NCBI GenBank assembly: GCA_022572685.1
Contig: JACZVL010000001.1
Location: 3,914 to 67,913, forward strand
Length of the DNA: 64,000 bases
Reading direction: 5' to 3'
Origin: Pseudomonadota bacterium
GTDB taxonomy: Bacteria; Pseudomonadota; Alphaproteobacteria; Kiloniellales; J153
The position numbers and the translations under genes were made by a program. Positions 37,439 through 53,214 of this stretch are shown in pieces. A model generated the notes under the pieces. The model made no database searches, had not been told where the DNA came from, and was given only the letters and a program-made list of their open reading frames with translations. Within the stretch, counting starts at the first letter, position 1. The number at the start of each line of letters is the position of its first letter.

Positions 37439-37497
37439 TATTAATAAGATGCTTGATATAGCGATTTCTCTTGCACTACCGGGTGATTGTGGGCGGG

Positions 37498-38655: not shown

Positions 38656-39461
38656 GACAGGGTCCGGATCGCGCGTTCGAGGGCGACCGCGTGAATCTGC
38701 AGGCTGTAGGCGTCGGCCCCCAGGCCGCCCTCGCGCAGCAGCTCGACCACCGCCGCGCGGTCGCTCCGCGCGACCAGCCGGCTGGCGTCCTCGATGACGA
38801 TGGGCCGGGATTCGGTGGCCCCGGCCACGGCGCGGCAGACCCCGCGCTCGGGATCGTGCAGCACCGCGCCGATGGCGTGGGCGAACTCGCCGGGCTTGCG
38901 GTTCACCTTGTAGTAGCCCCAGCGCGCGCCGGCGCCCAGGCGGGGCACGCGCACCGCCTCCAGGATCTCGTCGGCCTCGAGCGCCGTCTCGAACCCGCCG
39001 CGCATGAACTCGGCCACGGCCAGTTCGCGGCGGCCGGAGGGGCCGTGGACGACGATCTCGGCGCCGAGCGCGGTCAGGCAGGTGATCCAGTCGGCCGCGG
39101 GGTCGGCGTGCGCCAGGCTGCCGCCGATGGTGCCGCGGCTGCGCACGGCGCGATAGGCGATGCCCTGGGCGACCGCCGGCAGCACCCCGCCGGTCACGTC
39201 CGGCACGCGGCCGTCCTCGATCGCCGCGTGGGTGGTGCAGGCGCCGAGCAGCACGCCGTCGCCATCCTCCTCGACCCGGGTGAGCTCGGGGATCCGCGTG
39301 ATGTCGACCAGCAGGTCCGGCTGCACCAGGCGCAGATTGAGCATCGGCCCGAGCGACTGCCCGCCGGCCAGGCACTTCACGACGGTTCCGCGCGTGCCCA
39401 GCAGCGCCACCGCCTCACCGAGGCTGGCGGGCCGCGCGTAGTCGAAGCGGGCCGGCTTCAC
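38652..39461 (-). CDS. Molybdenum hydroxylase FAD-binding medium subunit (CoxM-like), second copy
   Basis: 269 aa. GTG start in a GTGA overlap with the large-subunit stop. Contains LAGGQSLGPMLNLR and RGTIGGSLAHADPAAD. Confidence 0.9.
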   Translation of the reverse strand: MKPARFDYARPASLGEAVALLGTRGTVVKCLAGGQSLGPMLNLRLVQPDLLVDITRIPELTRVEEDGDGVLLGACTTHAAIEDGRVPDVTGGVLPAVAQGIAYRAVRSRGTIGGSLAHADPAADWITCLTALGAEIVVHGPSGRRELAVAEFMRGGFETALEADEILEAVRVPRLGAGARWGYYKVNRKPGEFAHAIGAVLHDPERGVCRAVAGATESRPIVIEDASRLVARSDRAAVVELLREGGLGADAYSLQIHAVALERAIRTLS

Positions 39462-41842
39462 GATCCGCCGCCTTGCGCCCCATCTCGCTGCGCCCCATCT
39501 CGCTGTGCCCCATCTCGCTGCGCCTTCGCGATGGCGGCCAGTAAGCGGCGCGGCGTGATCGGCGTTTCGGTGACCTCGGCGCCGAGCGGCCGGAGCGCGT
39601 CGTTGACCGCGTTGGCGATGGCGGCCGGCGGGGCGATGGCGCCGCCCTCGCCGATGCCCTTGACGCCGAACTCGGTATAGGGCGAGAGCGTCTCCATGTG
39701 CCCGATGCGCAGGGAAGGCACCTCGGTGGCGCCTGGGATCAGGTAGTCGGCGAGGGTCGAGGCGAGCGGCTGGCCGGCCGCATCGAAGGGCATCTCCTCA
39801 TAGAGCGCGGTGCCGATGCCCTGGGCCGCGCCGCCCTGAATCTGGCCGTCGACGATCATCGGATTGACCAGCTTGCCGCCGTCCTCGATCACCACGTAGT
39901 CGAGGATCTCGACCGCGCCGAGCTCCGCATCGACCGCCACCACCACGGCGTGGCTGGCGTAGCTGAAGGTCCCCGAATCCCGTTCCGGCTTGTAGCCGGC
40001 GGTGATCTCCAGGCCGGCCGGATCGACATCGTCGGGCAGGTCCTGGGGGCGCAGGTACCAGACCTGGGCGACCTCGTCGATGCCGACGCTGCCGGCCGCC
40101 CCGCGCACCCGCCCGTCTTCGAGCGCGACCTCCGCCACCGGCACCTGAAGCAGGCCGGCACCGATCTTCATAATCCGCCCCGCCAGCGCGCGGCAGCCGG
40201 TCGCGACCGCGCCGCCGGCCATGACCATGCAGCGCGAGCCCCAGGTGCCGGTCGAGTAGGGCGTGAGCTGGGTATCGCCGTGGACCACCTTCACCTTGTC
40301 GATGGCGATGCCGAGGATCTCGTTGACCACCTGCGCCAGGGTGGTTTCCAGGCCCTGGCCGTGGGAATGCACGCCGACCCGGACCTCGAGCCCGCCATCG
40401 GGGGTGATCCGCAGCGCGGCCTGCTCGTGGCCCGGCACCATGGGGATGCCCCAGCCCGCATAGACCGAGGTGCCGTGGGCCGCCTGCTCGCAGTAGATCG
40501 CCAGGCCGAGGCCGATCAGCCGGCCGTCGGCCTCGCCCCGCTGCTGGCGCGCGCGGACCGCGGGCAGGTCGATCTCGGCGACCGCGCGGCGCAGCGATTC
40601 GGGGTAGTCGCCGCTGTCGAAGTGCTTGCCCGTGATGTTGTCGAAGGGCATGGCCTCGGGCGGGACCAGGTTCTTGAGCCGCACCTCGTGGGGTTCCAGC
40701 CCGGCCTCGCGCGCGATCGCATCGATGATCAGCTCCATGGCGAAGCAGACCCCGGTCCGGGCGACGCCGCGGTAGGGCATGATCGGCGACTTGTTGCTGG
40801 CCACCGACCAGGTCCGGCAGCGGTAGACCGGCAAATCGTAGGGTCCCGGCAGGATGCTGCCGATCTGGGCCGCCTCCAGGCAGGCGGAGAAGGGATAGAT
40901 GGAGTAGGCGCCGGAATCGACCGTGGCCTCGGCGTCGATGGCGAGCAGCCGGCCGTCGGCCTCGGCATAGGCGGTGATCAGGTAGTGGTGCTCGCGGCAG
41001 TTGGCGCCCGCGGTCAGGTGCTCGCGCCGGTCCTCGATCCAGCGCAGCGGGTGCCCGAGCCGCATGGTCAGCCACGACAGGCAGACCTCCTCGGGCAGCA
41101 GGACGCCCTTGTAGCCGAAGCCGCCGCCGACATCGGGCGCCACCACCCGGACCTGGCCGTGATCGAGGCCCAGGCACTCGCACAATCCGGTCCGCGTGAC
41201 ATGGGGCATCTGGGCGGCGCTGTGGACGATCAGCTGATCGAGCCGTGGGTCCCAGGCGGCGACCACGCCGCGGCCCTCGATCGGCATCATGCACTGGCGC
41301 GCGGTCCGCAATTCGCGGGTGACCCGGATCGCCGCCTTGTCCTTGACCGATTCCACGTCACCGTCGACCAGGGACTCGAGAAAGACGTTGTCGCCCCATT
41401 CCTCGTGGACCAGGGGCGCATCGGGCGCGCGCGCCGCGATCATGTCGACCACCGCCGGCAGCTCCTCGAAATCGACCTCGATCTCGGCCGCGATGTCCTC
41501 GGCCTCGGCGCGCGTGTCGGCGACGCAGGCCGCGATCGCCTCGCCGACCTGGCGCACCTTGTTCCGGGCCAGGCAGGGCTGTTCGGAGGGCTTGAAGCCG
41601 GGCAGGCTGGAGACCGCCCGGATCGGTTTCACGCCCGCCAGGTCGGCCGCCGTGAACACCGCGTCGCGCCATTTCCCGGGGATATGGATGTCGCCGATGC
41701 GGGCGTGGGCGAGCGGGCTGCGCAGGAACGCCACTTCCTTCATGCCGGGCAGCTTGATGTCGGCGACGAATTGGCCGCGGCCGCGCAGGTAGCGGTCGTC
41801 TTCCTTGCGCGGGACAGACTTGCCGACCCCCTGCCCGGACAT
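39458..41842 (-). CDS. Molybdopterin-binding large subunit (CoxL/xanthine dehydrogenase family), second copy
   Basis: 794 aa. Contains GKSVPRKEDDRYLRGRGQFVAD. The active-site-region motif is YRGVARTG. The C-terminus carries the repeat-encoded (AQRDG)x3. Confidence 0.9.
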   Translation of the reverse strand: MSGQGVGKSVPRKEDDRYLRGRGQFVADIKLPGMKEVAFLRSPLAHARIGDIHIPGKWRDAVFTAADLAGVKPIRAVSSLPGFKPSEQPCLARNKVRQVGEAIAACVADTRAEAEDIAAEIEVDFEELPAVVDMIAARAPDAPLVHEEWGDNVFLESLVDGDVESVKDKAAIRVTRELRTARQCMMPIEGRGVVAAWDPRLDQLIVHSAAQMPHVTRTGLCECLGLDHGQVRVVAPDVGGGFGYKGVLLPEEVCLSWLTMRLGHPLRWIEDRREHLTAGANCREHHYLITAYAEADGRLLAIDAEATVDSGAYSIYPFSACLEAAQIGSILPGPYDLPVYRCRTWSVASNKSPIMPYRGVARTGVCFAMELIIDAIAREAGLEPHEVRLKNLVPPEAMPFDNITGKHFDSGDYPESLRRAVAEIDLPAVRARQQRGEADGRLIGLGLAIYCEQAAHGTSVYAGWGIPMVPGHEQAALRITPDGGLEVRVGVHSHGQGLETTLAQVVNEILGIAIDKVKVVHGDTQLTPYSTGTWGSRCMVMAGGAVATGCRALAGRIMKIGAGLLQVPVAEVALEDGRVRGAAGSVGIDEVAQVWYLRPQDLPDDVDPAGLEITAGYKPERDSGTFSYASHAVVVAVDAELGAVEILDYVVIEDGGKLVNPMIVDGQIQGGAAQGIGTALYEEMPFDAAGQPLASTLADYLIPGATEVPSLRIGHMETLSPYTEFGVKGIGEGGAIAPPAAIANAVNDALRPLGAEVTETPITPRRLLAAIAKAQRDGAQRDGAQRDGAQGGGS
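39475..39524. repeat. In-frame tandem repeat, 3 x 15 bp (G[C/T]GCCCCATCTCGCT) plus a partial unit, at the 3' end of the large-subunit gene
   Basis: Read directly. Encodes AQRDGAQRDGAQRDG and lies 14 nt upstream of the medium-subunit GTG start. Confidence 0.9.
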
Positions 41843-41846
41843 GGGT

Positions 41847-42608
41847 TCAGCCGGTCCTGGCGTTCAGGAGATCGATATCGAGTCGTATGCAATCGCCGCG
41901 ATAGACGATATCCGCGACGTAGATGGCGACGCCGCGGTCGTCGACCACCACGCAGTGCGCCTCCGCCGTGGGCGCGTTCAGGGCGAGGCCGAGAAGCTGC
42001 GCCGTCTCCATGTCGGCCGCGCCGATCATCAAGGTCTGGTGCGCGCGCGCGATCGTCACGCCCTTCAGCGTCGAGAGGACCGAGAGCGCGGTCCGGGTCC
42101 GGAAGCGTTTCGGCGCCTGCTCGAAAACCTCCTTGGCCACATGCACCCGCGCGAAGGCATAGGGCTCGTTGTCCCGGGACTGCAGGCTCTTGATGAAGGC
42201 ATATTCCTCCGCCGCCGTGCCGTCGCCGGGATCGATGCGCGGCTCGGGCGGCGGTCCCTCGTTCGGGATCACGTGCGGCACGTTGTCCTTGATGCTGTCG
42301 ATCAGGGTTTCCCAGTCGGTCGCCAGGCGCAGCCAGCGGCGATCCGGCGGAATACCGGTGACGAAGGTGCCGCGACCCTGCTGGCGCTGGACCAGCCCTT
42401 CCTTCTCCAGGATATCCACGGCCTGGCGGACGGTGACGCGCGCGACCTGAAATTCGGCCTCGAGCTCTTCCAGGGTCGAGATCTTGTCGCCGGGCGACCA
42501 GCGGCCGTCTTCGATCCGCTGCCGCAGGGTCGCCGCGATCTGCACGTAGAGCGGCGCGCGGCTGCGCTCGTAGGTTTGGGCGAGGCTGTGTGCTGGGTTT
42601 CGTGACAT
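41847..42608 (-). CDS. GntR-family transcriptional regulator, HutC subfamily
   Basis: Begins MSRNPAHSLAQTYERSRAPLYVQIAATLRQRIEDGRW at ATG 42608. The wHTH is LEELEAEFQVARVTVRQAVDILEKEGLVQRQQGRGTFV, followed by a UTRA-like C-terminus. The longer track ORF is read-through. Confidence 0.85.
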   Translation of the reverse strand: MSRNPAHSLAQTYERSRAPLYVQIAATLRQRIEDGRWSPGDKISTLEELEAEFQVARVTVRQAVDILEKEGLVQRQQGRGTFVTGIPPDRRWLRLATDWETLIDSIKDNVPHVIPNEGPPPEPRIDPGDGTAAEEYAFIKSLQSRDNEPYAFARVHVAKEVFEQAPKRFRTRTALSVLSTLKGVTIARAHQTLMIGAADMETAQLLGLALNAPTAEAHCVVVDDRGVAIYVADIVYRGDCIRLDIDLLNARTG

Positions 42609-42630
42609 GGTTCCGACCGGGTCTCCATAG

Positions 42631-42642
42631 TTGTACGTACAA
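42631..42642. promoter_or_regulatory. Perfect 12-bp palindrome TTGTACGTACAA in the GntR/pxpA-F420 divergent promoter
   Basis: Read directly, 23 nt upstream of the GntR start. A further TTGTAC half-site lies ~60 nt downstream. Confidence 0.35.
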
Positions 42643-42795
42643 ACGCAAGGGGGATGGCAACCCTTGCCGGCCCCTGTTTCACCCGCTTTTGGATTGTACT
42701 GTCTTTCTAAACTTAATACCATATGGCAGTGGCATGGAGCCACCGGGAGCGCGCGCCAAAAGCGGGTCCCGAGATGGCGACGAGACAGGCATTCG

Positions 42796-43572
42796 ATGGC
42801 CAGAAAAATCAACCTCAACGCCGATATGTGCGAGGGATTCGGCGCCTACGACATCGGCGACGACGCGGCGCTCTTGAAGATCGTCCGCTCGGCCAACGTC
42901 GCCTGCGGCTTCCACGCCGGCGACCCGGTGGTCATGCGCCGCCTGGTGCTGCGCGCCAAGGAGGAGGGCGTCAGCATCGGCGCGCACCCGGGCTTCAACG
43001 ACCTCTGGGGCTTCGGCCGCCGGCGCATCGAGATGCCCCCGGACGCGCTCGAGTACATGATCGCCTATCAGATCGGCGCGCTGCAGGCGATGGCCGCCTA
43101 TGCCGGACTGAAGGTCACCCACCTCAAGCCCCACGGGGCGCTCAACAACATGGCGGCCGAGGACCGGGACCTGGCGCTGGCCATCGGCCGGGCCATGAAA
43201 ACCGTCGACCCCGGCATCATCTACGTCGCGCTGGCCGGCTCGGAGATGGCGGCGGCGGCCGAGGAGCTGGGCCTGCCGCTGGCCCGCGAGGCCTTCGCGG
43301 ACCGTCTCTACGAGGACGACGGCAACCTGACCCCGCGCAAGATCGAGGGCAGCGTGATCCGCGACCCGGAGGTCGCGCGCGCGCGCGCCGTCGCCATGGT
43401 CGAGGAACAGGCGGTGACCTCGCGCCACGGCAAGAAACTTCCCTGCCGCATCGACAGCATCTGCGTGCACGGCGACGAACCGACCGCGGTCACCGTCGCG
43501 CGCGCGGTGCGCGAGGGCCTGGAGCAAGCCGGCATCGAGGTCGTGCCCCTGCCCCAGATGGACCTCAACTGA
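42796..43572 (+). CDS. pxpA: LamB/YcsF family protein (5-oxoprolinase subunit A, PxpA-like)
   Basis: Begins MARKINLNADMCEGFGAYDIGDD...VACGFHAGDP..., the classic LamB/YcsF N-terminus. Start at ATG 42796. No pxpB or pxpC is adjacent. Confidence 0.85.
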   Translation: MARKINLNADMCEGFGAYDIGDDAALLKIVRSANVACGFHAGDPVVMRRLVLRAKEEGVSIGAHPGFNDLWGFGRRRIEMPPDALEYMIAYQIGALQAMAAYAGLKVTHLKPHGALNNMAAEDRDLALAIGRAMKTVDPGIIYVALAGSEMAAAAEELGLPLAREAFADRLYEDDGNLTPRKIEGSVIRDPEVARARAVAMVEEQAVTSRHGKKLPCRIDSICVHGDEPTAVTVARAVREGLEQAGIEVVPLPQMDLN

Positions 43573-43610
43573 GGGGCTGAGCGGCCAAGAGGCGAAGGCG
43601 GATAGGCAAC

Positions 43611-44294
43611 GTGGCGCAAGATCGACCTGTCATCGCCGTCGTCGGCGGCACCGGCAAGCTCGGCGCCGGGCTGGCGCGGCGACTGGCGAAAGCAGGCTAC
43701 GTCCTGGTTATCGGTTCCCGCGAGGCGGGCCGCGCGCAATCTGCGGCGAGCGCGCTCGCGCGGGATACCGGTGGCCAGGTGACCGGCCAGGCCAATCGCG
43801 CGGCGGCGGCGGCGGCGGACATCGTCATCGTCACCGTGCCCTTCGCCAGCCAGAGGGCGATTCTCGAGGACATCGGCCCGGCCGTGCAGGGCAAGATCGT
43901 GGTCGATACCACGGTGCCCCTGGTGCCCCCCAAGGTGGCGCGCGTTCAATTGCCGCCGGAGGGTTCGGCGGCCGAGATCGCGCGGGCCACCCTCGGCGAG
44001 GGTGTCCGCCTGGTCGCCGCCTTCCACAACGTGGCGGCGCACAAGCTGATCCAGGAAATCGAGATCGACTGCGACGTCCTGGTCTTCGGCGACCAGGTCG
44101 CGGCGCGCGAGGCGGTCATCGAGTTGGCCGCGGCGATGGAGCTGCGCGGCGTGCACGCCGGTCCGCTGGCCAACGCGGTGGCCGCCGAGGCGCTGACCTC
44201 GGTCCTGGTCGGCATCAACAAGCGCTACCAGGCGGACGGCGCCGGGATCCGGATCACCGGGATCGACCCCGGCCCGGCGGCCCGCGAAGCCTGA
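43611..44294 (+). CDS. npdG: NADPH-dependent F420 reductase
   Basis: 227 aa with GTG start. Contains the Rossmann motif IAVVGGTGKLGAGLARRLAKAGYVLVIGSR and the C-terminal GPLANA...E.LT..L. pattern of NpdG/Fno. Confidence 0.85.
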   Translation: MAQDRPVIAVVGGTGKLGAGLARRLAKAGYVLVIGSREAGRAQSAASALARDTGGQVTGQANRAAAAAADIVIVTVPFASQRAILEDIGPAVQGKIVVDTTVPLVPPKVARVQLPPEGSAAEIARATLGEGVRLVAAFHNVAAHKLIQEIEIDCDVLVFGDQVAAREAVIELAAAMELRGVHAGPLANAVAAEALTSVLVGINKRYQADGAGIRITGIDPGPAAREA

Positions 44295-44301
44295 GGCGGC
44301 G

Positions 44302-45096
44302 ATGACCGTCGCACCGGTCACCCTGACCGCGGTTCCCGGCATCCCGCCGATCGGGCCCCGGGACGATGTGGCCGCCATCCTGGTCGCGGCGCTGGTGGCC
44401 GCCGCCATGACGCCCGCCTCGGGCGACGTTCTGGTGGTCGCGCAGAAGATCGTCTCCAAGGCCGAGGGGCGGATCGTCGATCTGAACGGTGTTACGCCCT
44501 CGGCCCGGGCCCGCGAGCTGGCGGCAAAGGTGGACAAGGATCCGCGCCTGGTCGAGCTGATCCTGAGGGAGTCGAGCGAGGTGGTGGCGCACAAACCCGG
44601 CGTCCTGGTGGTCGCGCACAAGCTGGGCTTCGTGCTGGCCAACGCCGGGATCGACCGCTCCAACGTCGCGCCCCCATCGGACTCCGGGCCGGACTCCGGG
44701 CCGGACTCCGAGCCCGTGCTGCTGCTTCCGGTGGACCCCAACGCCTCGGCCGCCGCGCTCAAGGCGCGCCTCGACGACCATTTCGGCGCGGCACTCGGCG
44801 TCGTGGTCAGCGACAGCGTCGGGCGCGCCTGGCGCAACGGGATCACGGGCATCGCGCTGGGGGCCGCCGGCCTGCCGGCGCTGCGCGACCTGATCGGCCG
44901 AACCGATCTCTTCGGGCGCCGCCTGGAGGTGACTCAGACCGGCTTCGCCGACGAGATCGCCGGCGCCGCCTCGCTGGTGATGGGCCAGGCCGACGAAGGC
45001 CTGCCGGCGGTCCTGGTGAGCGGCCTCAGCTGGCGCGAGCCGGCGGCCGACGCCACGGCGCTGCTGCGCCCCAAGGACCAGGACCTGTTCCGATGA
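44302..45096 (+). CDS. cofE: Coenzyme F420-0:L-glutamate ligase (stand-alone CofE, without the FbiB C-terminal domain)
   Basis: 264 aa. Contains VVAQKIVSKAEGR, HKLGFVLANAGIDRSN and SDSVGRAWRNG. Confidence 0.9.
   Translation: MTVAPVTLTAVPGIPPIGPRDDVAAILVAALVAAAMTPASGDVLVVAQKIVSKAEGRIVDLNGVTPSARARELAAKVDKDPRLVELILRESSEVVAHKPGVLVVAHKLGFVLANAGIDRSNVAPPSDSGPDSGPDSEPVLLLPVDPNASAAALKARLDDHFGAALGVVVSDSVGRAWRNGITGIALGAAGLPALRDLIGRTDLFGRRLEVTQTGFADEIAGAASLVMGQADEGLPAVLVSGLSWREPAADATALLRPKDQDLFR
44679..44714. repeat. In-frame tandem repeat, 3 x 12 bp (GGACTCCG[G/A]GCC), inside cofE
   Basis: Read directly. Encodes the DSGPDSGPDSEP insertion immediately after the conserved NAGIDRSNV segment. Confidence 0.9.
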
Positions 45097-46079
45097 GCCC
45101 GGAAACCCGATCGGCCGGGCCCGTGGTCGCGCTGTGCGGTGGCATCGGCGGCGCCAAGCTGGCGCTCGGGCTGTACCGGCACCTGGGCCCGGACCGCTTG
45201 ACCGTGGTGGTCAACACCGGCGACGACTTCGAGCACCTCGGGCTGCACGTCTCGCCGGACCTCGACACCGTGCTCTACACCCTGTCGGGCCGGAACGACC
45301 CGGACAGCGGCTGGGGCCGCGCCGGGGAGACCTGGAACTTCATGGCGGCGCTCGAGGAGCTGGGCGGCGAGACCTGGTTCCGGCTGGGCGACCAGGACCT
45401 GGCCTTGCACGTCGAGCGGACCCGGCGCCTGCGCGCCGGCGAGCCGCTGTCGCGCATCACCGCAAGCATCGCCGAACGCTTCGGGCTGAAGGCCCGGATC
45501 CTGCCCATGTCCGAGGATCCGCTGCGCACCATCGTCCAGACCCCGGACGGGCCGCTGCCGTTCCAGCACTACTTCGTGCGCGAAGGCTGCGAACCGGTGG
45601 TGACGGGCATCGAGTTCGACGGCGCCGCGGACGCGCGCGCCCAGCCGGAAGTCGTGCGAGCCTTGGCCGATCCCAGCCTGGAAGCCGTCGTGATCTGCCC
45701 CTCGAATCCCTACCTGAGCGTCGACCCGATCCTGGCCGTCCCCGGCCTGCGTTCCGCGCTGGCCGCCTGCCCGGCCCCGGTGGTCGCGGTCTCGCCGCTG
45801 GTCGGCGGCCGCGCGGTCAAGGGCCCGACCGCGAAGATCATGGGCGAGCTGGGTATCGCCGCGACCGCTCAAAGCATCTGCGCGCACTATCAGGGCCTGC
45901 TCGATGGTTTCGTGCTGGATGTGGAGGACGCCGAGACCGCGGGATCGATCGGCCTGCCGACGCTTACCGCCCAGACGGTCATGCGCACGCTTGAAGACAA
46001 GCAACGACTGGCGCAAGCTGTGCTTGAATTCGCGCGGGACCTGGCGGCAGGCGCAAAACAGAAGCGAGCAAACTCATGA
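45093..46079 (+). CDS. cofD: 2-phospho-L-lactate transferase (LPPG:FO transferase)
   Basis: 328 aa with an ATGA overlap with cofE. Contains VVALCGGIGGAKLALGL, VVNTGDDF and PSNPYLS. Confidence 0.9.
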   Translation: MSPETRSAGPVVALCGGIGGAKLALGLYRHLGPDRLTVVVNTGDDFEHLGLHVSPDLDTVLYTLSGRNDPDSGWGRAGETWNFMAALEELGGETWFRLGDQDLALHVERTRRLRAGEPLSRITASIAERFGLKARILPMSEDPLRTIVQTPDGPLPFQHYFVREGCEPVVTGIEFDGAADARAQPEVVRALADPSLEAVVICPSNPYLSVDPILAVPGLRSALAACPAPVVAVSPLVGGRAVKGPTAKIMGELGIAATAQSICAHYQGLLDGFVLDVEDAETAGSIGLPTLTAQTVMRTLEDKQRLAQAVLEFARDLAAGAKQKRANS

Positions 46080-46705
46080 CGACCTGGGCCGTCGTTCCCG
46101 TCAAGCGTTTCGCGGACTCGAAGTGCCGCCTCGCGGGCGTGTTGGATCCAGCGGCGCGGCGGCGGCTCTCCCTCCTCATGCTGCGCGATCTGCTCGGCGC
46201 GCTGGCCGCCACCCCCGGCCTCGACCGCGTCGTGCTGGCGACCTCGGAACCGAGTGCCGCGGGCTTCGGCTGTCCGGTCATCGACGACGGCGGCGGCGAT
46301 CTGAACGCCGCGATCGCCCGCGCCGCCGCGGCGCTGGAGGCCGCGGAAGTCGCGCGGATGCTGGTGATCGCCGCCGATATACCGCTCGCGGCGCCGGCGG
46401 AGGTCGCGCGGGTCCTGGCGGCGGGCGAGGAGGCGCCGGTGGTCATCGTTCCCGACGCGCGGGGACTCGGCACCAACGCGCTCCTGCTGTCGCCGCCTTG
46501 CGCGATGGCCCCGTGTTTCGGCACCGACAGCCGCGCGCACCACGCCGCGGCGGCAAGCAACCGGGGCCTGGCAAGCAGGGAGCTGCGCCTGCCGAGCCTC
46601 GGCTTCGACGTGGACGAGCCGGAGGACCTCGCCCGGCTGGCGCGGGTGGCCGCGGATCGGCCGGCCTACCGGTTCCTCGCCCGCACCTTCGAGGCGGCGG
46701 AATGA
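46076..46705 (+). CDS. cofC: 2-phospho-L-lactate (or analogous) guanylyltransferase
   Basis: 209 aa with an overlapping start. Contains WAVVPVKRFADSKCRL and the ADIPL motif. Confidence 0.85.
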   Translation: MTTWAVVPVKRFADSKCRLAGVLDPAARRRLSLLMLRDLLGALAATPGLDRVVLATSEPSAAGFGCPVIDDGGGDLNAAIARAAAALEAAEVARMLVIAADIPLAAPAEVARVLAAGEEAPVVIVPDARGLGTNALLLSPPCAMAPCFGTDSRAHHAAAASNRGLASRELRLPSLGFDVDEPEDLARLARVAADRPAYRFLARTFEAAE

Positions 46706-49152
46706 CGGGAATCGAGCAGGTCCTGGAGCGCGCGCGGGAGGGCGTTCGCCCGTCACCGGCGGAGGCTGTCGCCTTGGCCGGATTCGACGACCTGCCGGCC
46801 CTGATGGCGGCCGCCGAGGCGATCGCACAGGCCGGCCACGGCCGGCGGGTCAGCTACTCGCGGAAGGTCTTCATCCCGCTGACCAAGCTGTGCCGGGACG
46901 TCTGCCACTACTGCACCTTCGCCCAGCCGCCGGGCAACGGCGCGGCCGCCTTCCTGACCCCGGAGCAGGTCATCGAGATCGCCCGCGCCGGCGCCGCGGC
47001 GGGCTGCAAGGAGGCGCTGTTCACCCTCGGCGACAAGCCGGAGCTGCGCTATCGCGCGGCGCGCGAGGCGCTGGCCGCGCTCGGTCACGAGACCACGCTG
47101 TCCTATCTGGAGGCGGTGGCCCGGCTGACCCTGGAGACCACCGGCCTGCTGCCGCACCTCAACCCCGGCGTCATGACCGCGGAGGACCTGCGCCGGTTGC
47201 GGCCGGTCTCGGCCTCCATGGGGTTGATGATCGAATCGGTCTCGGACCGGCTGTGCGAGCGAGGCGGCCCCCATTGGGGCTCGCCCGACAAGCGGCCGGC
47301 CGCGCGCCTGGCGACCATCCGCGCCGCCGGCGAGCTGCGCATCCCCTTCACCACCGGGCTTTTGATCGGGATCGGCGAGACCCGGGCCGAGCGGGTCGCG
47401 GCGCTGCTGGCGCTGCGCGAGTTGCACGACGCCCACGGCCACATCCAGGAGATCATCATCCAGAACTTCCGGGCCAAGCCCGGCACCCGCATGGCGAGCG
47501 CGCCGGAACCGAGCCTGGAGGCGCACCTCTGGACCGTCGCGGTGGCGCGCGTGCTGTTCGGACCCGGGATGACGGTCCAGGCGCCGCCCAACCTGCAGCC
47601 CGGCGCCCGCGCGGCCCTGATCCGCGCCGGGATCGACGATTGGGGCGGGGTCTCGCCGGTCACCCCGGATCACGTCAATCCGGAGGCACCCTGGCCGCGG
47701 CTCGACGCCCTGGCCGCGGAAACCGCGGGCGCCGGCCGGGTCCTGGTGGAGCGGCTCGCGGTCCATCCGGACTATGCGCTGAATCCGGCCGAGTGGCTGG
47801 ATGCCGCGTTGAGGCCGGCCGTGCTCCGGCTCTCCGACGCGGACGGCCTGGCCCGGACCGACTCCTGGTGCGCCGGCGCCCAGACCGCGCCGCCGGTGGG
47901 CGAAATGGCGCCATCGGGGCTCGCCCGGGGGGGGCAGGCATCCGCCGGGCTGGCATCCGCCGAACTGTCGCCGATCCTGGAGCGCGCGCGCGCCGGCCGG
48001 GCCCTGTCGGAAGCGGACATCGTCGGGCTCTTCGCGGCCCGGGGGCCGGACGTCGCGGCCGTGGTGACGGCGGCCGACGCCCTGCGCGCCGAAACCGTTG
48101 GCGACGGCGTCGCCTACGTCGTCAACCGCAACATCAACTACACCAACGTGTGCGTCTATCGCTGCAACTTCTGTGCCTTCTCCAAGGGCCGGACCGCGGC
48201 CGCGCTGCGCGGCCGGCCCTATGATCTGTCCCATGAGGAGATCGCGCGGCGGGTGCGCGAGGCCTGGGCGCGGGGCGCCACCGAGGTCTGCCTGCAAGGC
48301 GGCATCCATCCCGATTACACCGGCCAGACCTATCTGGACGTGCTGGCGACCGTGAAGGCGGCGGCGCCGGACATGCACGTCCATGCCTTCTCGCCGCTCG
48401 AGGTGACCCACGGCGCCGAGACGCTCGGCCTCCCGGTGGCGGCGTTCCTGGGCGAGTTGAAGGCGGCGGGGCTCGGCTCGCTGCCCGGCACGGCGGCCGA
48501 GATTCTCGACGACGAGGTGCGCGCCGTGATCTGCCCCGACAAGCTGGCGACGGCCGAGTGGCTGGAGGTCATGCGCGCGGCCCACGGCCTGGGGCTGCGC
48601 ACCACGGCGACCATCATGTTCGGCCATGTCGACCGGCCCCGGCACTGGGCGCGTCATATCCGGCACGTCCGCGCCCTGCAGGAGGAGACCGGCGGCTTCA
48701 CCGAGTTCGTGCCCCTGGCCTTCGTGCACATGGAGGCGCCGATCTGGCTGCGCGGCCAGTCGCGCCCGGGACCGACCTTTCGCGAGGCGATCCTGATGCA
48801 CGCGGTCGCGCGGCTCGCGTTCCACCCGGTGATCCCCAACATCCAGGTGTCCTGGGTCAAGCTGGGGCCGGCGGGTGCCGCGGCGGCCCTGCGCGCCGGC
48901 GCCAACGATCTGGGCGGGGTGCTGATGAACGAATCGATCACCCGCGCCGCCGGCGCCAGCCACGGTCAGGAAATGAGCCCGGCCGAGCTCGATGATTTGA
49001 TACGCGGGCTCGGCCGCGAGCCCCGGCAGCGGACCACGCTCTATGGAACGCCGCCCCCGGAACGGCGCGCGGCGGCGCGGAGCGCGGGCCCGATCGCGGA
49101 GATCGAGGAGACCCCGCTGGGCCGTCGCAAGCTGGACGTGGCGGCCGAATAG
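46702..49152 (+). CDS. fbiC: Bifunctional FO synthase (fused CofG plus CofH radical SAM domains)
   Basis: ATG 46702, an ATGA overlap with cofC. Two CxxxCxxC motifs are present (CRDVCHYC and CVYRCNFC). 816 aa. The track start at 45904 is read-through. Confidence 0.9.
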   Translation: MTGIEQVLERAREGVRPSPAEAVALAGFDDLPALMAAAEAIAQAGHGRRVSYSRKVFIPLTKLCRDVCHYCTFAQPPGNGAAAFLTPEQVIEIARAGAAAGCKEALFTLGDKPELRYRAAREALAALGHETTLSYLEAVARLTLETTGLLPHLNPGVMTAEDLRRLRPVSASMGLMIESVSDRLCERGGPHWGSPDKRPAARLATIRAAGELRIPFTTGLLIGIGETRAERVAALLALRELHDAHGHIQEIIIQNFRAKPGTRMASAPEPSLEAHLWTVAVARVLFGPGMTVQAPPNLQPGARAALIRAGIDDWGGVSPVTPDHVNPEAPWPRLDALAAETAGAGRVLVERLAVHPDYALNPAEWLDAALRPAVLRLSDADGLARTDSWCAGAQTAPPVGEMAPSGLARGGQASAGLASAELSPILERARAGRALSEADIVGLFAARGPDVAAVVTAADALRAETVGDGVAYVVNRNINYTNVCVYRCNFCAFSKGRTAAALRGRPYDLSHEEIARRVREAWARGATEVCLQGGIHPDYTGQTYLDVLATVKAAAPDMHVHAFSPLEVTHGAETLGLPVAAFLGELKAAGLGSLPGTAAEILDDEVRAVICPDKLATAEWLEVMRAAHGLGLRTTATIMFGHVDRPRHWARHIRHVRALQEETGGFTEFVPLAFVHMEAPIWLRGQSRPGPTFREAILMHAVARLAFHPVIPNIQVSWVKLGPAGAAAALRAGANDLGGVLMNESITRAAGASHGQEMSPAELDDLIRGLGREPRQRTTLYGTPPPERRAAARSAGPIAEIEETPLGRRKLDVAAE

Positions 49153-49191
49153 ATTGGTCTTAATTTCAGCTTCGGAACGATGTCCCAGACC

Positions 49192-49259
49192 CTATTAAAG
49201 GGACACCATACTTAATTCCCGGCACGGGCTATCAATTAAGTATGCTGTCCCTTTAATAG
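49192..49259. repeat. Inverted pair of REP-like elements (CTATTAAAGGGACACCATACTTAATT / AATTAAGTATGCTGTCCCTTTAATAG)
   Basis: Read directly at 49192-49217 and 49234-49259. The same 26-mer recurs at 49294-49319 (inverted) and 50022-50047. Confidence 0.8.
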
Positions 49260-49293
49260 AAGCGCTCTTTAATAGCGTTTCCAATAGCTTACC

Positions 49294-50062
49294 CTATTTT
49301 AGGGACAGCATACTTAATTCGCCTTGCTTCGCTTCGGCTTGGGCCCACGCCTTTGCGGCGCGAGGGTCCGTCCCAAGCGCCTTTCCAGGGCGGCCAGGAA
49401 CGGCTCGCCGCCGAGCGGCCGGCCGCTGCGTTGGTGGCGGCGCAAGGCCTCGGCCGCCGCGGTATCGAGTCCCTCATCGAGAAACCCGGCCCAATCGTCG
49501 ACTAGCGCCAGGAGCGGCCCGGTTTTCACCAGCCGATCGTCCCGGCCCGCCAGATGCGCCGCGGCGCTGCTCCAGGGATAGTCCTGCGCCCGCCGCGCCA
49601 GGCGCGCCCGCACCGGGTTGAGCTCCACGTAGCGCGCCGCACTGAGAAGATAGGCCTCGTCCATCGGAAAGGAGATAAAGCGCCCCTGCCACAGGTGTCC
49701 GGTCCAGCCCTCGCGACGATTGATCCGCAGGGTGTAGCGACGGTGCGCCTCCCCGATCGCCCGGCGCAAGCCATCCGCCGTCTCGGGGGTGGCGATCAGA
49801 TGCACATGGTTCGGCATCAGGCAGTAGGCCCAGATCTCCACGCCACGGCGTCCACACCACTCGGCCATCAGCGCCAGATAGGCGCGGTAGTCCGCCTCCG
49901 AGAAGAAGGTCTCCTGCCGTCGGTTGCCCCGCTGCGTCACGTGGTGCGGCAGGCCCGGGGCGACCACGCGCGCCAATCTCACCATCCGGAAAGACTACGA
50001 CGGCCCGAATGCGCAGACCAGAATTAAGTATGCTGTCCCTTTAATAGCTGTCCCTTTAATAG
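49294..50062 (-). mobile_element. RAYT unit: REP-associated tyrosine transposase gene flanked by inverted REP copies
   Basis: The left REP is CTATTTTAGGGACAGCATACTTAATT (49294-49319). The right REP is AATTAAGTATGCTGTCCCTTTAATAG (50022-50047), followed by the partial duplicate CTGTCCCTTTAATAG (50048-50062). Confidence 0.8.
49314..49985 (-). CDS. REP-associated tyrosine transposase (RAYT; IS200/IS605-like Y1 transposase family)
   Basis: 223 aa. Contains LPHHVTQRGNRRQETFF, the HuH motif MPNHVHLIA, and a catalytic Tyr region (YVELNPVRA...YPWSS). Confidence 0.85.
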   Translation of the reverse strand: MVRLARVVAPGLPHHVTQRGNRRQETFFSEADYRAYLALMAEWCGRRGVEIWAYCLMPNHVHLIATPETADGLRRAIGEAHRRYTLRINRREGWTGHLWQGRFISFPMDEAYLLSAARYVELNPVRARLARRAQDYPWSSAAAHLAGRDDRLVKTGPLLALVDDWAGFLDEGLDTAAAEALRRHQRSGRPLGGEPFLAALERRLGRTLAPQRRGPKPKRSKAN

Positions 50063-50084
50063 GCTGGCCGCGTTGGGTCGCGGT

Positions 50085-51041
50085 TCAGGCGCCCGCCTTC
50101 AGCTTCGGGATGATGTCCCGGGCGATCGCCTCGACCTGCTCCATCTCGTAGCGGTAGGGCACGAAGATGATGCGGTCGACGCCGGTCGCGACGTGGGCCT
50201 GAAGCTGTTCGACGCATTCCTCGGGGGTGCCCATGATCGCGCTCTCGGGCGTCGAGCTGCTCCAGGACGCGAAGTCCCACTCGGTCTTGAGCCATTCGTT
50301 CATCGGCCCCTCGACCTTGTCGCGCGGCCCGACCACGATCGGCAGCTGGTTGCAGCTGATCAGGGTGGCCGGGTCCTTGCCGGCTTCCTCGGCGTAGTCG
50401 CAGACCTTGGTCCAGTCGGCGGCGAAGGCGTCGGGCCGGTAGAAATAGGTCAGCCAGCCATCGCCCTTGACCCCGGCCCGCTTGAGCACGCGGTCGACGT
50501 AGCCGCCGATCAGCAGCGGCGGCCGGGGCTGCTGCACCGGCTTGGGATACATCCGCGCCTGGCGCAGATTGTAGGGCCCGAACTCGCCGGTGACCGAGTC
50601 CTCCGTCAGCAGCGCGTTCAGGATGTCGAGATTCTGGTCCATGATCTTGCCGCGCCGGTGGAAATCCACCCCGACCGCGTCGAACTCGCGCTTGTACCAG
50701 CCCGCCGCCATGCCGAGGGTCAGGCGGCCGTTGGAGATCTGATCGAGCGAGGCGATCTGCTTGGCGAGCACCACCGGGTTGCGCAGGGGCAGCACCAGAA
50801 TGCCGGTGCCGAGCTTGATCTTGCTGGTGCGGGCGGCGACGGCGGCGAGCAGGGTGAGGGAGTCGATGATCGGGAAGCAGGGATCGACGCCCAGCAGGAT
50901 GTGGTCCCAGACCCAAAGCGACTCGTAGCCCAGTTCCTCGGCGCGCTCGGCGAAGGCGATCAGCTCCTGGGGATCCGGGCTGTCCGGATAGGCCTGAAAG
51001 TTGCGCAGCGCGATGCCGTAGGAGGTGGTCTTCTTGGCCAT
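50085..51041 (-). CDS. LLM-class oxidoreductase (luciferase-like; flavin or F420 dependent)
   Basis: 318 aa. Contains YESLWVWDHIL, RLTLGMAAGW and the C-terminal VDRIIFVP. Confidence 0.85.
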   Translation of the reverse strand: MAKKTTSYGIALRNFQAYPDSPDPQELIAFAERAEELGYESLWVWDHILLGVDPCFPIIDSLTLLAAVAARTSKIKLGTGILVLPLRNPVVLAKQIASLDQISNGRLTLGMAAGWYKREFDAVGVDFHRRGKIMDQNLDILNALLTEDSVTGEFGPYNLRQARMYPKPVQQPRPPLLIGGYVDRVLKRAGVKGDGWLTYFYRPDAFAADWTKVCDYAEEAGKDPATLISCNQLPIVVGPRDKVEGPMNEWLKTEWDFASWSSSTPESAIMGTPEECVEQLQAHVATGVDRIIFVPYRYEMEQVEAIARDIIPKLKAGA

Positions 51042-51063: not shown

Positions 51064-51825
51064 TTAGGCTATGTAGAGCCGGTCGGGATCGAGTTCGCGC
51101 AGCACGGCGAGCTCGCGCGCGCTCGGCGGCTCGGTGGTTTCCAGCTCGCCCACCTGAATCTCGAATCCCGTGTTGTCGCGCACCTGGTCGATGGAAACAC
51201 CGGTGTGCAGCGCCTCCACCACCATCTCGCGGCCGGTCTCGGTGAAGCCGAGGATCGCCAGGTCGGTCACCACCTTGAACATGCCGCCCGTGGGCAAGCC
51301 GGATTCGGCGCGGCTGGTGCCGCCTTCGATGAAACCGGGAGAGGTGATGAAGTCGACCCTCTCCACGAAGCGCCGCTTCTCGTGCCTCATGGTGACGATC
51401 ATCTGGGTAAGACTGGATATGTCGTTGCCGCCGCCGGTGCCGGGCAGGCGGATCTTCGGGTTCGCCGGGTCGCCGATATAGGAGCTGTTCAGGTTGCCGT
51501 ACCTGTCGATCTGCGCCCCGCCCATGAAACCGATGTCGACGTAACCGCGCTGCAGCAGCAACAGAACGTCGGTGATCGGCAGCACCATGTTGGCCCGCCG
51601 GGTACAGCGCTGCTCGTTGGTCGAGGGCGGCAACTCGCCGGGCACCACGAAGGGGCCGATCACGCCGCCCTCGAACAGGATGGTCAGGCCGGGGCCGTGC
51701 AGCCGCTGGGCGAGGGTCGCCGCCAGCAGGGGCACGCCGACGCCGGCGAACACGACCTGGCCGTCGCTCAGCAGCCGGGCGCTCATGACCGCGAGCAACT
51801 CCGAGGCGGTGTATCGCTCAGTCAT
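51064..51825 (-). CDS. CoA-transferase subunit B (glutaconate/3-oxoacid CoA-transferase family)
   Basis: Begins MTERYTASELLAVMSARLL at ATG 51825, an 8-nt overlap (ATGACTGA) with subunit A. Contains FEGG and GGAQID. Confidence 0.85.
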   Translation of the reverse strand: MTERYTASELLAVMSARLLSDGQVVFAGVGVPLLAATLAQRLHGPGLTILFEGGVIGPFVVPGELPPSTNEQRCTRRANMVLPITDVLLLLQRGYVDIGFMGGAQIDRYGNLNSSYIGDPANPKIRLPGTGGGNDISSLTQMIVTMRHEKRRFVERVDFITSPGFIEGGTSRAESGLPTGGMFKVVTDLAILGFTETGREMVVEALHTGVSIDQVRDNTGFEIQVGELETTEPPSARELAVLRELDPDRLYIA

Positions 51826-52774
51826 TGTGGATGCTCCGTCCCCGCCGCGCCGCATCGAGCATCTCGTCCAGCCCCAGGAGTTTCAGGTAGTCGTTCCAGC
51901 TGTCGGGCCCATAGTGGAACCGCTCGAGATACCGCTTCACACCGGCCTCGGCATCGTCCTTGGTCGCCTTGGCATAGTCGTCCAGGTGCCCGAAGAACGG
52001 CTCGTAGAGGCCATAGCATTCGTGGGGCGCGGCGCCGAACGGCACTTCGACGACCGCGTCCACCGTGAAGAAGGGGATCTTGGTCTGGTCCGGCGTGCGG
52101 CGGATCTGATCGTTCGAGACGATGCGCTCGGTGGTCAGGATGACCCGCCGCGCCGCCATCGCGATATCGATATCCATGAACTGAAGGCCGTCGAGCTGGG
52201 CGTTGCCGTAGGCGTCGGCCCGCTGCACGTGGATCAGCGCGACGTCCGGGTTGAGCGCGGGCAGCGCCAGCAGGCGATCGCCGGTGAACGGGCAGTCGAT
52301 CTCCCGCGCCGCGTCGCCGATCACCTCGCGCACGCCGGAGCCCATCATCGAGCGCGTCGGCATGAACGGCAGGCCCATGGCGCCGGCGCGGTAGCGCAAG
52401 CCCATGGACATGTGGCTCCATTCCTCGAAGCGCGCCTGGCCGGTCTCGGTGTAGTGGCGCATCACCTTGGAAATGCCCCAGACGATGCCCTGGCTGAACC
52501 AGCTGGTGACGATGTGGCCGCTGACGCCCGATCCGTAGAGCAGATCGCCCTCGGTCGAGACGATGCTGCGCGACACGGTCAGCTCCTTCCGCCGCGCCCG
52601 GATCAAGGCCCAGATCAACGCCATGGGGGTCCGCGACAGGGTGCAGCCGCCGAGCGCCACGTGGTCGCCATCGTGGATGAAGGCCGCCGCTTCCTCGAGC
52701 GATACCACCTTCTCGCGCAAGCTTCGGTCGCGCGTTCGCGTCTCCTCGCGCAACTCAAGATAGGACTTCACCAT
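51818..52774 (-). CDS. CoA-transferase subunit A
   Basis: Contains KVVSLEEAAAFIHDGDHVALGG, typical of the subunit A N-terminus. The start is assigned to ATG 52774 (MVKSYLEL...). The upstream part of the track ORF is Arg/Pro-rich read-through. Confidence 0.8.
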   Translation of the reverse strand: MVKSYLELREETRTRDRSLREKVVSLEEAAAFIHDGDHVALGGCTLSRTPMALIWALIRARRKELTVSRSIVSTEGDLLYGSGVSGHIVTSWFSQGIVWGISKVMRHYTETGQARFEEWSHMSMGLRYRAGAMGLPFMPTRSMMGSGVREVIGDAAREIDCPFTGDRLLALPALNPDVALIHVQRADAYGNAQLDGLQFMDIDIAMAARRVILTTERIVSNDQIRRTPDQTKIPFFTVDAVVEVPFGAAPHECYGLYEPFFGHLDDYAKATKDDAEAGVKRYLERFHYGPDSWNDYLKLLGLDEMLDAARRGRSIHND

Positions 52775-53214
52775 GAGGCCCTCGCCCTCCCCATCACGAT
52801 CGAAATACTCGGCCACATCCTGTCGCTCACGCCGGGGCAAGCCTTCGGGGCCGACGCCCGCCCGGGCAGGTTCCGTTCGACGCTTGCCAAGTTCGGCGCT
52901 TTCAAAGATAGGCGGGAGGACAACATCCGGTATGCGACCCTGGCGAATGGCGTTTGTTGTTCTTGCGCGCGGCCGCAGGGGCCGCCACGGAAGCAGCATA
53001 GCTCAATGATGTTATCATTCCAATATTAGTATGACCGATCCCGCGACCCGCACCGGCGCCCGCCGACGGTCTCTCGATCGCGGGTGGCGTCTCGAGGTAT
53101 CGGAACGGCTTTCTCATCCACGGAGGCCACGGGGCGCGCCTCATCGGCTCGAGTCGGTTTCCCCCGACACCGCCCGTTTCGGCACGGTCGTTCGCCGGCG
53201 TCCATGCGCCGCGA

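Follow-up and report, generated by a model that had tools for sequence, protein, structure and literature searches.

The 64,000-nt stretch of alphaproteobacterial DNA analysed here (contig JACZVL010000001.1; hereafter the window) carries six head-to-tail genes, pxpA-npdG-cofE-cofD-cofC-fbiC, in which the gene for a PxpA-like protein of the LamB/YcsF family stands at the head of an operon for the biosynthesis of coenzyme F420. Judged by gene content and gene order, the region around this operon appears to be a rearranged version of a supercluster that occurs in many Alpha-, Beta- and Gammaproteobacteria. We favour, with moderate confidence, the interpretation that PxpA is the hydrolase of a GntR-controlled, F420H2-dependent catabolic pathway whose genes enclose those for F420 synthesis.

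Genes in the window were mapped using an open reading frame (ORF) map together with hidden Markov model (HMM) scans against NCBIfam and Pfam. Related loci, designated by L numbers, came from two samples: 80 GTDB species-representative loci seeded with CofD, and 80 metagenome loci seeded with PxpA (67-95% identical), 61 of which were evaluable for the gene 3' of pxpA. The mapping agreed with an earlier note, made from the sequence alone, that had described six head-to-tail plus-strand genes, and slightly corrected their coordinates. From pxpA through to fbiC the intergenic spacings are +38, +7, -4, -4 and -4 nt, no terminator-like site was found when one was looked for in the 38-nt gap between pxpA and npdG, and pxpA lies directly 5' of npdG in more than 35 loci; we infer that pxpA and the F420 genes are co-transcribed. 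The same layout, with a GntR gene divergent from pxpA-npdG-cofE-cofD-cofC-fbiC, was present on at least eight other metagenome contigs of the window's population and in two sister lineages (L101 and L102) whose PxpA proteins are 92-95% identical.

Gene order and co-occurrence around pxpA

The intact supercluster comprises genes for a LIV-type ABC transporter, a quinoline-oxidoreductase-like molybdenum (Mo) hydroxylase, a HutC-type GntR regulator, PxpC and PxpB, then the divergent pxpA-npdG-cofE-cofD-cofC-fbiC operon, and genes for an F420-dependent LLM oxidoreductase, a glutaconate-type CoA-transferase and a pyridoxal phosphate (PLP) enzyme of the cysteine-synthase fold. In L091, whose PxpA is 71% identical to that of the window, the order is the LIV-type ABC genes (+); Fer2-CoxG, FAD_binding_5 and MoCoBD (-); GntR, PxpC and PxpB (-); PxpA, NpdG, CofE, CofD, CofC and FbiC (+); and LLM, CoA-transferase B, CoA-transferase A and PALP (-). 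The window was collinear with L091 over 17 genes at 64-83% protein identity, differing in that pxpC and pxpB are gone, the PLP gene is gone, and a RAYT gene has been added between fbiC and the LLM gene. With pxpCB gone, a spacer of 187 nt is all that separates the GntR gene from pxpA. The closest intact relatives, L105 and L107 (PxpA 75-77% and LLM 84-86% identical), have the same order as L091.

Since these otherwise collinear relatives carry pxpCB, the orphan PxpA of the window is the product of a deletion in its own lineage, and the puzzle of a PxpA without partners reduces to that lineage-specific event. The earlier note had remarked on the lack of PxpB and PxpC. This was correct for the window, in all 64 kb of which tblastn detected neither gene, so that the locus does not encode the partners of a PxpABC 5-oxoprolinase; it is, though, an exception, as 18 of 23 evaluable F420-linked loci in the PxpA-seeded sample carry pxpCB. 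Among all 26 F420-linked loci of that sample, pxpCB was divergent and next door in 13, a few genes away in five, absent in five and not judgeable in three. Where it was more distant, the order was PxpC and PxpB (-), then GntR, the Mo-hydroxylase and PxpA (+). PxpBC was encoded beside the orthologue of the window PxpA in L091, L105, L107, L089 and many other loci.

The earlier note had proposed that LamB/YcsF genes might be enriched next to F420 genes, and when examined in that way they were. Of the 80 CofD-seeded loci, 9 had PxpA directly upstream of npdG or cofE and on the same strand, and so did 26 of the 61 evaluable PxpA-seeded loci. The nine come from both Alpha- and Betaproteobacteria; Cupriavidus numazuensis and an Afipia metagenome-assembled genome are among them. 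In the remainder of the 61 loci, the gene directly 3' of pxpA encoded an LLM or PALP protein (five loci) or was unrelated (30). The npdG-led order of the window occurred in 38 of the 80 CofD-seeded loci; no adjacent PxpA was present in 30 of those 38, or in 71 of the 80 overall. When the CofD-seeded loci were divided by whether they also carried LLM, CoA-transferase, PALP or Mo-hydroxylase genes (module-positive) or did not (module-negative), PxpA was adjacent in 8/17 of the former versus 1/63 of the latter (Fisher p = 6.7e-6). An F420-related role for the LamB/YcsF protein, as the earlier note had suggested, is thus supported to the extent that PxpA adjoins F420 operons, but PxpA tracks the catabolic module, and most F420 operons have no PxpA beside them.

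The module also occurred without F420 genes. In L003-L006 and L087-L088, orthologous PxpA proteins (75-80% identical) with pxpCB were found directly beside LLM, CoA-transferase and PALP genes without intervening F420 genes, and the same layout with a more distant PxpA of about 70% identity was seen in L121, L155 and L174. This layout corresponds to the L091 order minus the npdG-fbiC block, and these loci look like deletions of the F420 block. Insertion of the F420 block into an F420-free catabolic cluster was considered as a general history and rejected, because the order containing F420 genes is widespread and basal in both samples.

Conversely, nine module-bearing F420 loci in the CofD-seeded sample were entirely without PxpA. 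Five of the nine encoded an ArgE/DapE deacylase, as did L131, L179 and the pSymA plasmid of Sinorhizobium meliloti. This deacylase was found in none of 25 module loci with PxpBC versus 7 of 18 without (Fisher p = 0.001), a pattern of exclusion that suggests non-orthologous replacement of a hydrolytic step. The deacylases of L012, L015, L025, L026, L058, L131, L179 and L181 are 64-86% identical to each other, and in L026 the gene lies between GntR and npdG, the slot occupied by pxpCB and pxpA in other loci. In L092, a protein of the 90%-identity cluster of the window LLM adjoins a fused hydantoinase/oxoprolinase. Together, the presence of PxpA with the module in the absence of F420 genes and the apparent swapping of one hydrolase for another argue for an amide- or lactam-hydrolysing step in a pathway rather than for a part in F420 biosynthesis.

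The window protein itself passed the PxpA subfamily model NF003814 and fell under the cutoffs of three equivalog PxpA models; solved homologues matched at E = 5e-72 (PDB 1V6T) to 2e-57. Of the alignment columns conserved at 95% or more among the other 87 sequences, it keeps 115 of 115. Values of dN/dS for the window pxpA are 0.2-0.3, with 0.275 against the other pxpBC-less lineage (L001), compared with 0.12-0.31 among partnered orthologues. The ORF was full length in every copy examined. The window pxpA is therefore intact and under purifying selection, and its product acts either with PxpBC encoded elsewhere or alone. In a neighbour-joining tree, built without support values, the F420-linked PxpAs were basal and paraphyletic and the PxpAs of plain pxpCB/pxpA loci formed one nested clade.

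In L001 (pxpA at 4281-5057) and L002, PxpA is 92% identical to that of the window, one of its closest relatives outside the window's own layout, and the promoter region upstream is shared, along with the GTAC element described below. The surroundings are unrelated: upstream lie sulfate-assimilation genes and DUF2061, and downstream an MttB-family methyltransferase and an Oxidored_FMN/Pyr_redox_2 protein. The same promoter in an unrelated setting shows that the pxpA cassette has moved in this lineage.

The F420 genes, regulator and flanking genes of the window

Table 1. Position, strand and principal match of each feature discussed (bit scores are given against the model cutoff).
Feature	Position	Strand	Evidence
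LIV-type ABC transporter: periplasmic binding protein, 2 permeases, 2 ATPases	31349-36047	+	Peripla_BP_6, BPD_transp_2 (twice), ABC_tran
Mo-hydroxylase small subunit, [2Fe-2S] + CoxG-like fusion	37504-38652	-	NCBIfam/Pfam matches; 65% identical to L091
Mo-hydroxylase FAD-binding medium subunit	38652-39461	-	subunit-beta-type matches; 64-66% identical to L006, L091
Mo-hydroxylase large molybdopterin subunit	39458-41842	-	PDB 1T3Q_B E = 4e-144; orthologues 63-78% in many related loci
HutC-type GntR regulator	41847-42608	-	PF00392 9e-21 (winged helix-turn-helix); PF07702 UTRA 2e-11
Conserved 24-nt element GTACTGTCTTTCTAAACTTAATAC	42696-42719	+	about 100 nt upstream of pxpA; unique in window
PxpA-like LamB/YcsF hydrolase, operon gene 1	42796-43572	+	LamB_YcsF PF03746 E = 1.5e-96; NF003814 357 vs 226
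npdG/Fno, NADPH-dependent F420 reductase	43611-44294	+	TIGR01915 188.8 bits vs 149.8
Stand-alone CofE, F420-0:gamma-glutamyl ligase	44302-45096	+	264 residues; TIGR01916 258.6 vs 180.65, residues 8-264
CofD, 2-phospho-L-lactate transferase	45093-46079	+	TIGR01819 290.9 vs 257.45
CofC guanylyltransferase, 2-PL/PEP type (predicted)	46076-46705	+	TIGR03552 167.7 vs 105
FbiC, fused CofG/CofH FO synthase	46702-49152	+	NF006687 1159 vs 1018; two radical-SAM domains
RAYT/REP insert (RAYT gene 49314-49985)	49187-50097	-	Y1_Tnp PF01797 5e-13; NF047646 72.2 vs 80
TIGR03619-family F420-dependent-type LLM oxidoreductase	50085-51041	-	205.6 bits vs 166.9
CoA-transferase subunit B, glutaconate CoA-transferase family	51064-51855	-	CoA_trans on orthologues; orthologues 70-85% identical
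CoA-transferase subunit A, GctA-like	51818-52774	-	PDB 1POI_A (glutaconate CoA-transferase) E = 7e-47

CofC, CofD, CofE and the FO synthase each scored above the curated cutoff of their family (Table 1), consistent with a proteobacterial F420 operon, and an F420-reducing enzyme, NpdG/Fno, is encoded within the operon. The earlier note had pointed to a CofE lacking the C-terminal reductase domain of actinobacterial FbiB. This proved accurate: the FbiB model NF009810 aligned over only its positions 11-243 of 449, and with cofD overlapping the cofE stop by 4 nt the protein does not have the two-domain form of FbiB. Also accurate was the statement that no obvious substitute is present, as tblastn with the nitroreductase of L043 detected no counterpart in the 64-kb window and a Pfam survey of most window ORFs revealed no substitute dehydro-F420-0 reductase. 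That a stand-alone CofE sets this window apart was not upheld, since such a CofE is the normal state in Proteobacteria.

The type of side chain was addressed through CofC. Published work takes Ser or Thr where Mycetohabitans has S162, supported by His where it has H145, as diagnostic of a CofC using 3-phosphoglycerate (3-PG) (PMC8764529). When the window CofC was aligned to 6BWG and 7P97, its motifs read F-G-T-D-S and G-L-GTN versus F-S-G-P-S and G-H-GTN in Mycetohabitans, with Gly at the S162 position (G163 in Mycobacterium tuberculosis FbiD) and Leu at that of H145. These residues indicate that the window CofC is of the 2-phospho-L-lactate (2-PL)/phosphoenolpyruvate (PEP) type predicted in Table 1, not of the 3-PG type. 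The origin of the saturated lactyl side chain in Proteobacteria with stand-alone CofE is unsettled in the literature (PMC6450877; PMC8764529). In six related loci (L034, L043, L138, L171, L176 and L178) a stand-alone nitroreductase resembling FbiB's C-terminal domain adjoins fbiC or GntR; in L043, from Cupriavidus numazuensis, it lies at 14791-15441 after a gene resembling beta-carbonic anhydrase. This protein, which scores 148 bits on TIGR03553, under the cutoff of 249.55, is a candidate dehydro-F420-0 reductase, and its presence suggests that some of these bacteria, at least, follow a PEP/dehydro-F420 route.

The HutC-type GntR gene reported by the earlier note as divergent from the operon was confirmed through its GntR and UTRA domains. 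No equivalog model (HutC, PhnF or others) was matched above cutoff. Orthologues 50-77% identical were found in 12 CofD-seeded loci and many PxpA-seeded loci, and they accompany the cluster in most related loci. The protein is probably the repressor of the divergent operons. The perfect palindrome described in the GntR-pxpA spacer is indeed present: TTGTACGTACAA (TGTA-CG-TACA) at 42631-42642 is 23 nt upstream of where the GntR gene starts, and the 64 kb contain no other TGTA-N2-TACA site. The chance of some perfect 12-nt palindrome in a spacer of 187 nt is about 0.04. A part as conserved operator was not supported for the palindrome, which has a degenerate form in L101 and L102, is lacking upstream of 40 other GntR orthologues and is confined to the window's own population; at best it may be a young candidate autoregulatory site.

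A conserved 24-nt element (Table 1; consensus GTAyTGTCTTTCyAAAnwTArTAC) shares the half-site TGTAC with the palindrome. Of 90 distinct pxpA upstream regions, 23 contained the pattern GTAy-N16-rTAC at about -50 to -130, versus 2% of random windows, with nearly all instances in loci of the GntR/F420/module type and essentially none in plain pxpCB/pxpA loci. We consider this element, and not the palindrome, the better candidate to serve the pxpA-F420 operon as GntR operator or promoter element. GntR would control the operon, and an inducible mode of control would fit the review finding of only trace F420 in lab-grown Oligotropha and Paracoccus (PMC8498797).

The genes flanking the operon are also those of the supercluster. 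The ABC transporter genes are 72-83% identical to those of L091 by tblastn and are syntenic with the flanking transporter in L091, L093 and S. meliloti pSymA, on which basis they encode the probable uptake system of the pathway. Orthologues of the Mo-hydroxylase small subunit carry the Pfam domains Fer2, Fer2_2 and COXG, and the nearest solved relative of the large subunit is quinoline 2-oxidoreductase (1T3Q), with all NCBIfam equivalog models under cutoff. The earlier note had listed three LLM proteins as candidate F420 users. That assignment holds for those at 50085-51041 and 28543-29481 (205.6 and 172.6 bits against a cutoff of 166.9) but not for the one at 6595-7773 (48.3 bits), which passes no F420-dependent family and whose best sub-threshold matches are FMN-type families, making it a poor candidate on these scores. 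The top PDB matches of the LLM at 50085-51041 are to F420-dependent Mer, its orthologues in related loci are 59-86% identical, and it is the probable F420H2-using enzyme of the pathway.

The nearest relative of the PLP enzyme of related loci has the cysteine-synthase fold, and no PALP-like sequence was detected in the window even at E <= 1. Where relatives encode this enzyme of 499 residues, the window (52775-54052) has no recognisable gene; of the ORFs that follow, 53215-54303 (-) and 54053-55042 (+), neither had an NCBIfam match and the latter also had no Pfam match. An ArgE/DapE deacylase homologue was likewise not detected in the window.

Two insertions were apparent. The RAYT gene is flanked on both sides by REP-like inverted repeats of 26-27 nt, as expected of a RAYT element, and a 22-nt duplication of the LLM 3' end (49165-49186 and 50098-50119) borders the insert on either side. 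It lies between the convergent fbiC and LLM genes and is absent in intact relatives (the fbiC-LLM gap in L091 is 21 nt). The other, at 36048-37503 between the transporter and Mo-hydroxylase genes, is a stretch of low GC content (about 56% versus about 70% around it) with two small ORFs, one of which (36474-37040) is weakly SocA-antitoxin-like (27.5 bits, far under the cutoff of 190). As the flanking genes abut in the conspecific contigs L093 and L094, which do not have the stretch, it is a recent insertion.

Further genes of related kinds lie upstream. Directly before the ABC transporter genes is a second candidate F420-linked module (22818-31154) that encodes a GntR/UTRA regulator, the hydantoinase/oxoprolinase proteins HyuA and HyuB (23351-27359), an MR_MLE protein of the enolase superfamily, the LLM at 28543-29481 and an AMP-binding ligase; L092 parallels it in having an LLM beside a fused HyuAB and an AMP-ligase. 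A further Mo-hydroxylase set was found in 14598-20936, with FAD_binding_5, 2Fe-2S and MoCoBD proteins (17234-20936), a FAD_binding_2 oxidoreductase and a LysR regulator. The hydroxylase at 17234-20936 is only 35-36% identical to the Mo-enzyme of the cluster. An Rfam scan of the whole window matched no families.

Beyond the window, the supercluster was observed in a cultured, genetically tractable species: L181 is plasmid pSymA of S. meliloti R28 (CP130049.1, 40736-67024). Its genes encode a pyrC-like dihydroorotase, a LIV ABC transporter, npdG, cofD, cofC, fbiC, CoA-transferase A and B, a TIGR03619 LLM, an ArgE/DapE deacylase, PntAB transhydrogenase and a Mo-hydroxylase, with no PxpA. FbiC homologues were also present on 58 plasmid records, including those of Sphingobium, Paraburkholderia, Aromatoleum aromaticum EbN1 and Agrobacterium rubi.

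A proposed pathway and its alternatives

Based on the gene content of the supercluster, we propose that PxpA, normally together with PxpBC, would act as an amide- or lactam-opening hydrolase of a substrate-inducible catabolic pathway whose reductive step runs on F420H2. NpdG/Fno would pass hydride from NADPH to F420, and the LLM would use the resulting F420H2; npdG heading the F420 block and PntAB in the S. meliloti copy point to NADPH as the reductant of F420 and to F420H2 as that of the pathway. As the F420 genes would share the pxpA transcription unit, the cofactor would be made upon induction of the pathway. The substrate class is probably an N-heterocycle or lactam. An N-heterocyclic carboxylate may be hydroxylated by the Mo-enzyme to a lactam, the ring of which would be reduced by F420H2 and then opened hydrolytically by PxpABC or, in other genomes, by the deacylase, with PLP- and CoA-dependent steps completing the breakdown. 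In the window's lineage, pxpCB and the PLP gene were deleted and the RAYT/REP element was inserted, with pxpA kept under selection. In this full form, in which the pxpA-F420 operon is one arm of an undescribed, widespread GntR-controlled pathway, F420H2 reduces a Mo-hydroxylated N-heterocycle or lactam, PxpABC or ArgE/DapE opens the ring and F420 synthesis is substrate-induced rather than constitutive, the proposal is a tentative one, which we would put at a little short of an even chance.

Several points weigh against these proposals. The adjacency of PxpA to F420 genes is kept with no pxpBC in view in the window, L101 and L102, in L023 and L131, in L024 and in L179, a retention not expected of a role that depends on PxpBC, unless those genomes encode pxpBC at another place. 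No LLM, CoA-transferase or PLP gene was present in the sequence examined of three loci with F420 genes and PxpABC (L043, L171 and L178), which indicates that the PxpABC-F420 link does not always need a nearby LLM module. The clade of plain pxpCB/pxpA loci without the module, being nested within the same PxpA subfamily, means that PxpAs of the window type may be ordinary 5-oxoprolinases. The genes of related loci were called by tblastn thresholds, and the loci sampled for the counts given above are not phylogenetically independent. Finally, while gene identities, synteny, co-occurrence and the deletions are established, the chemistry of the pathway is inferred from family resemblance alone.

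The ordinary role just mentioned is one that we consider unlikely, although it has points in its favour. 5-Oxoproline is a universal damage metabolite, and PxpA, with PxpBC encoded elsewhere, could be the subunit of a housekeeping 5-oxoprolinase that repairs it when it forms spontaneously, in which case adjacency to F420 genes would be historical gene order only. The clear score against the subfamily model (357 vs 226), the position of plain loci within the same tree, and the 70-74% identity to the PxpAs of the plain pxpCB/pxpA loci L120, L125 and L148, which have no module within 10 kb, would all fit such an enzyme. It would not account for an adjacency to the F420 block, GntR and the Mo-hydroxylase that has outlasted frequent rearrangement in Alpha-, Beta- and Gammaproteobacteria, nor for an upstream 24-nt element specific to GntR-type loci, nor for the mutual exclusion of PxpBC and the ArgE/DapE deacylase in the module; in addition, every equivalog-level PxpA model remained under its cutoff. 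We regard as more doubtful still the role put forward in the earlier note, in which the PxpA-like protein acts directly in F420 biosynthesis or maturation, by supplying or processing a side-chain precursor or as the missing dehydro-F420-0 reductase or source of 2-phospho-lactate. Its placement immediately upstream of npdG or cofE in both samples, its retention under purifying selection at the loci without pxpBC listed above, the unsettled route to the lactyl side chain with a stand-alone CofE and the lack of an FbiB-C-like nitroreductase in the window are all compatible with that role. Set against this, most F420 loci, including most with npdG, have no adjacent PxpA, and the same orthologue group occurs with pxpBC both at F420-free loci with LLM, CoA-transferase and PALP genes and at plain pxpCB/pxpA loci. 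PxpB and PxpC are present in most F420-linked loci, so that the enzyme there would be a three-part ATP-dependent lactamase and not an orphan. The LamB/YcsF fold is that of a hydrolase, neither a redox enzyme nor a kinase, and so fits neither missing step; such a hydrolase has no evident part in lactyl side-chain synthesis, and the stand-alone nitroreductase of six related loci is a more obvious answer to the missing reduction.

The least probable alternative, to which we give very little weight, is that pxpA of the window is a functionless leftover of the pxpCB deletion, kept only because the F420 operon has its promoter, operator and 5' end there. The locus has lost pxpC, pxpB and the PLP gene and has received mobile-element insertions (RAYT/REP and the low-GC stretch at 36.05-37.5 kb), and in the closest other lineage, L001/L002, pxpA and its promoter stand in an unrelated context. 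A leftover gene would not be expected to retain a full-length ORF in all copies examined and every conserved column, or a dN/dS between two pxpBC-less lineages that is within the partnered range. Moreover, the pxpBC-less state is common to lineages only 92-95% identical (L101 and L102), which would have allowed time for decay.

The favoured reading of PxpA as the hydrolase of an F420H2-dependent catabolic pathway bears on a wider question. A 2021 review of F420 described why Proteobacteria make the cofactor as an open question and noted that no F420-dependent enzyme from Proteobacteria had been studied (PMC8498797). The F420 genes of dozens of proteobacterial genomes have a physical, and probably a transcriptional, tie to genes for an LLM, a CoA-transferase, a Mo-hydroxylase, PxpABC or ArgE/DapE and a HutC-type regulator, and a pathway of this kind could help explain why aerobic Proteobacteria make F420. 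If true, it would be the first physiological role for F420 in aerobic Proteobacteria and would explain why mere traces are found in laboratory cultures. The link also makes the purpose of F420 open to experiment in cultured carriers, which include Cupriavidus numazuensis LMG 26411, Azospirillum sp. sgz301742, Xanthobacter sp. VNH20, Kaistia granuli DSM 23481, Mesorhizobium marinum and the S. meliloti strains with a pSymA copy.

Comparison with known systems

The prokaryotic 5-oxoprolinase PxpABC was reportedly described by Niehaus and colleagues in 2017 as an ATP-dependent lactam hydrolase made up of proteins of the LamB/YcsF, PxpB and PxpC families. The window protein shares the LamB/YcsF fold and passes the PxpA subfamily model, and the loci of its orthologues encode PxpB (TIGR00370 above cutoff) as well as a protein resembling PxpC. 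It differs in that pxpCB is divergent from pxpA in this subfamily, the equivalog PxpA and PxpC models were not reached, and the window locus itself is without pxpBC and has F420 and catabolic genes as its neighbours.

Nicotinate fermentation in Eubacterium barkeri employs a hydroxylase containing Mo and selenium, a low-potential ring reductase and a cyclic amidohydrolase. The likeness is one of function, not homology: a Mo-hydroxylase, a low-potential hydride system (NADPH to F420H2 to LLM) and a lactam opener are co-encoded in the supercluster. Here the reductase would be an F420H2-dependent LLM instead of an iron-sulfur flavoenzyme, and the ring opener would be PxpABC or ArgE/DapE instead of enamidase.

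In the mycobacterial fbiA/B/C/D route, PEP gives rise to dehydro-F420-0, which is reduced by the C-terminal nitroreductase domain of FbiB (PMC6450877). CofC/FbiD, CofD/FbiA, CofE and the N-terminal domain of FbiB, and FbiC are homologous between that pathway and the window, but the window CofE has no C-terminal reductase and no FbiB-C-like protein is encoded in the 64 kb. The 3PG-F420 cluster of Mycetohabitans (Paraburkholderia) rhizoxinica (bioRxiv 10.1101/670455; PMC8764529) is likewise Gram-negative and has a stand-alone CofE; the CofC of the window differs from that of M. rhizoxinica in having Gly for Ser162 and Leu for His145.

A supercluster joining F420 genes with LamB/YcsF, oxoprolinase, CoA-transferase and Mo-hydroxylase genes was not found described in the searchable literature, although a mention in Ney et al. 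2017 is still possible. The closest known relatives of the operon are the proteobacterial F420 operons of Oligotropha carboxidovorans and Paracoccus denitrificans, reported by Ney et al. 2017 according to a review (PMC8498797), which have the same five genes, a single-domain CofE and a fused FO synthase. Compared with these, the window operon is headed by pxpA and lies inside a cluster, probably under GntR control, that also encodes a Mo-hydroxylase, an F420-type LLM and a CoA-transferase. The six-gene operon itself is therefore of a known kind, and its pxpA head gene reflects membership of a larger and apparently undescribed supercluster.

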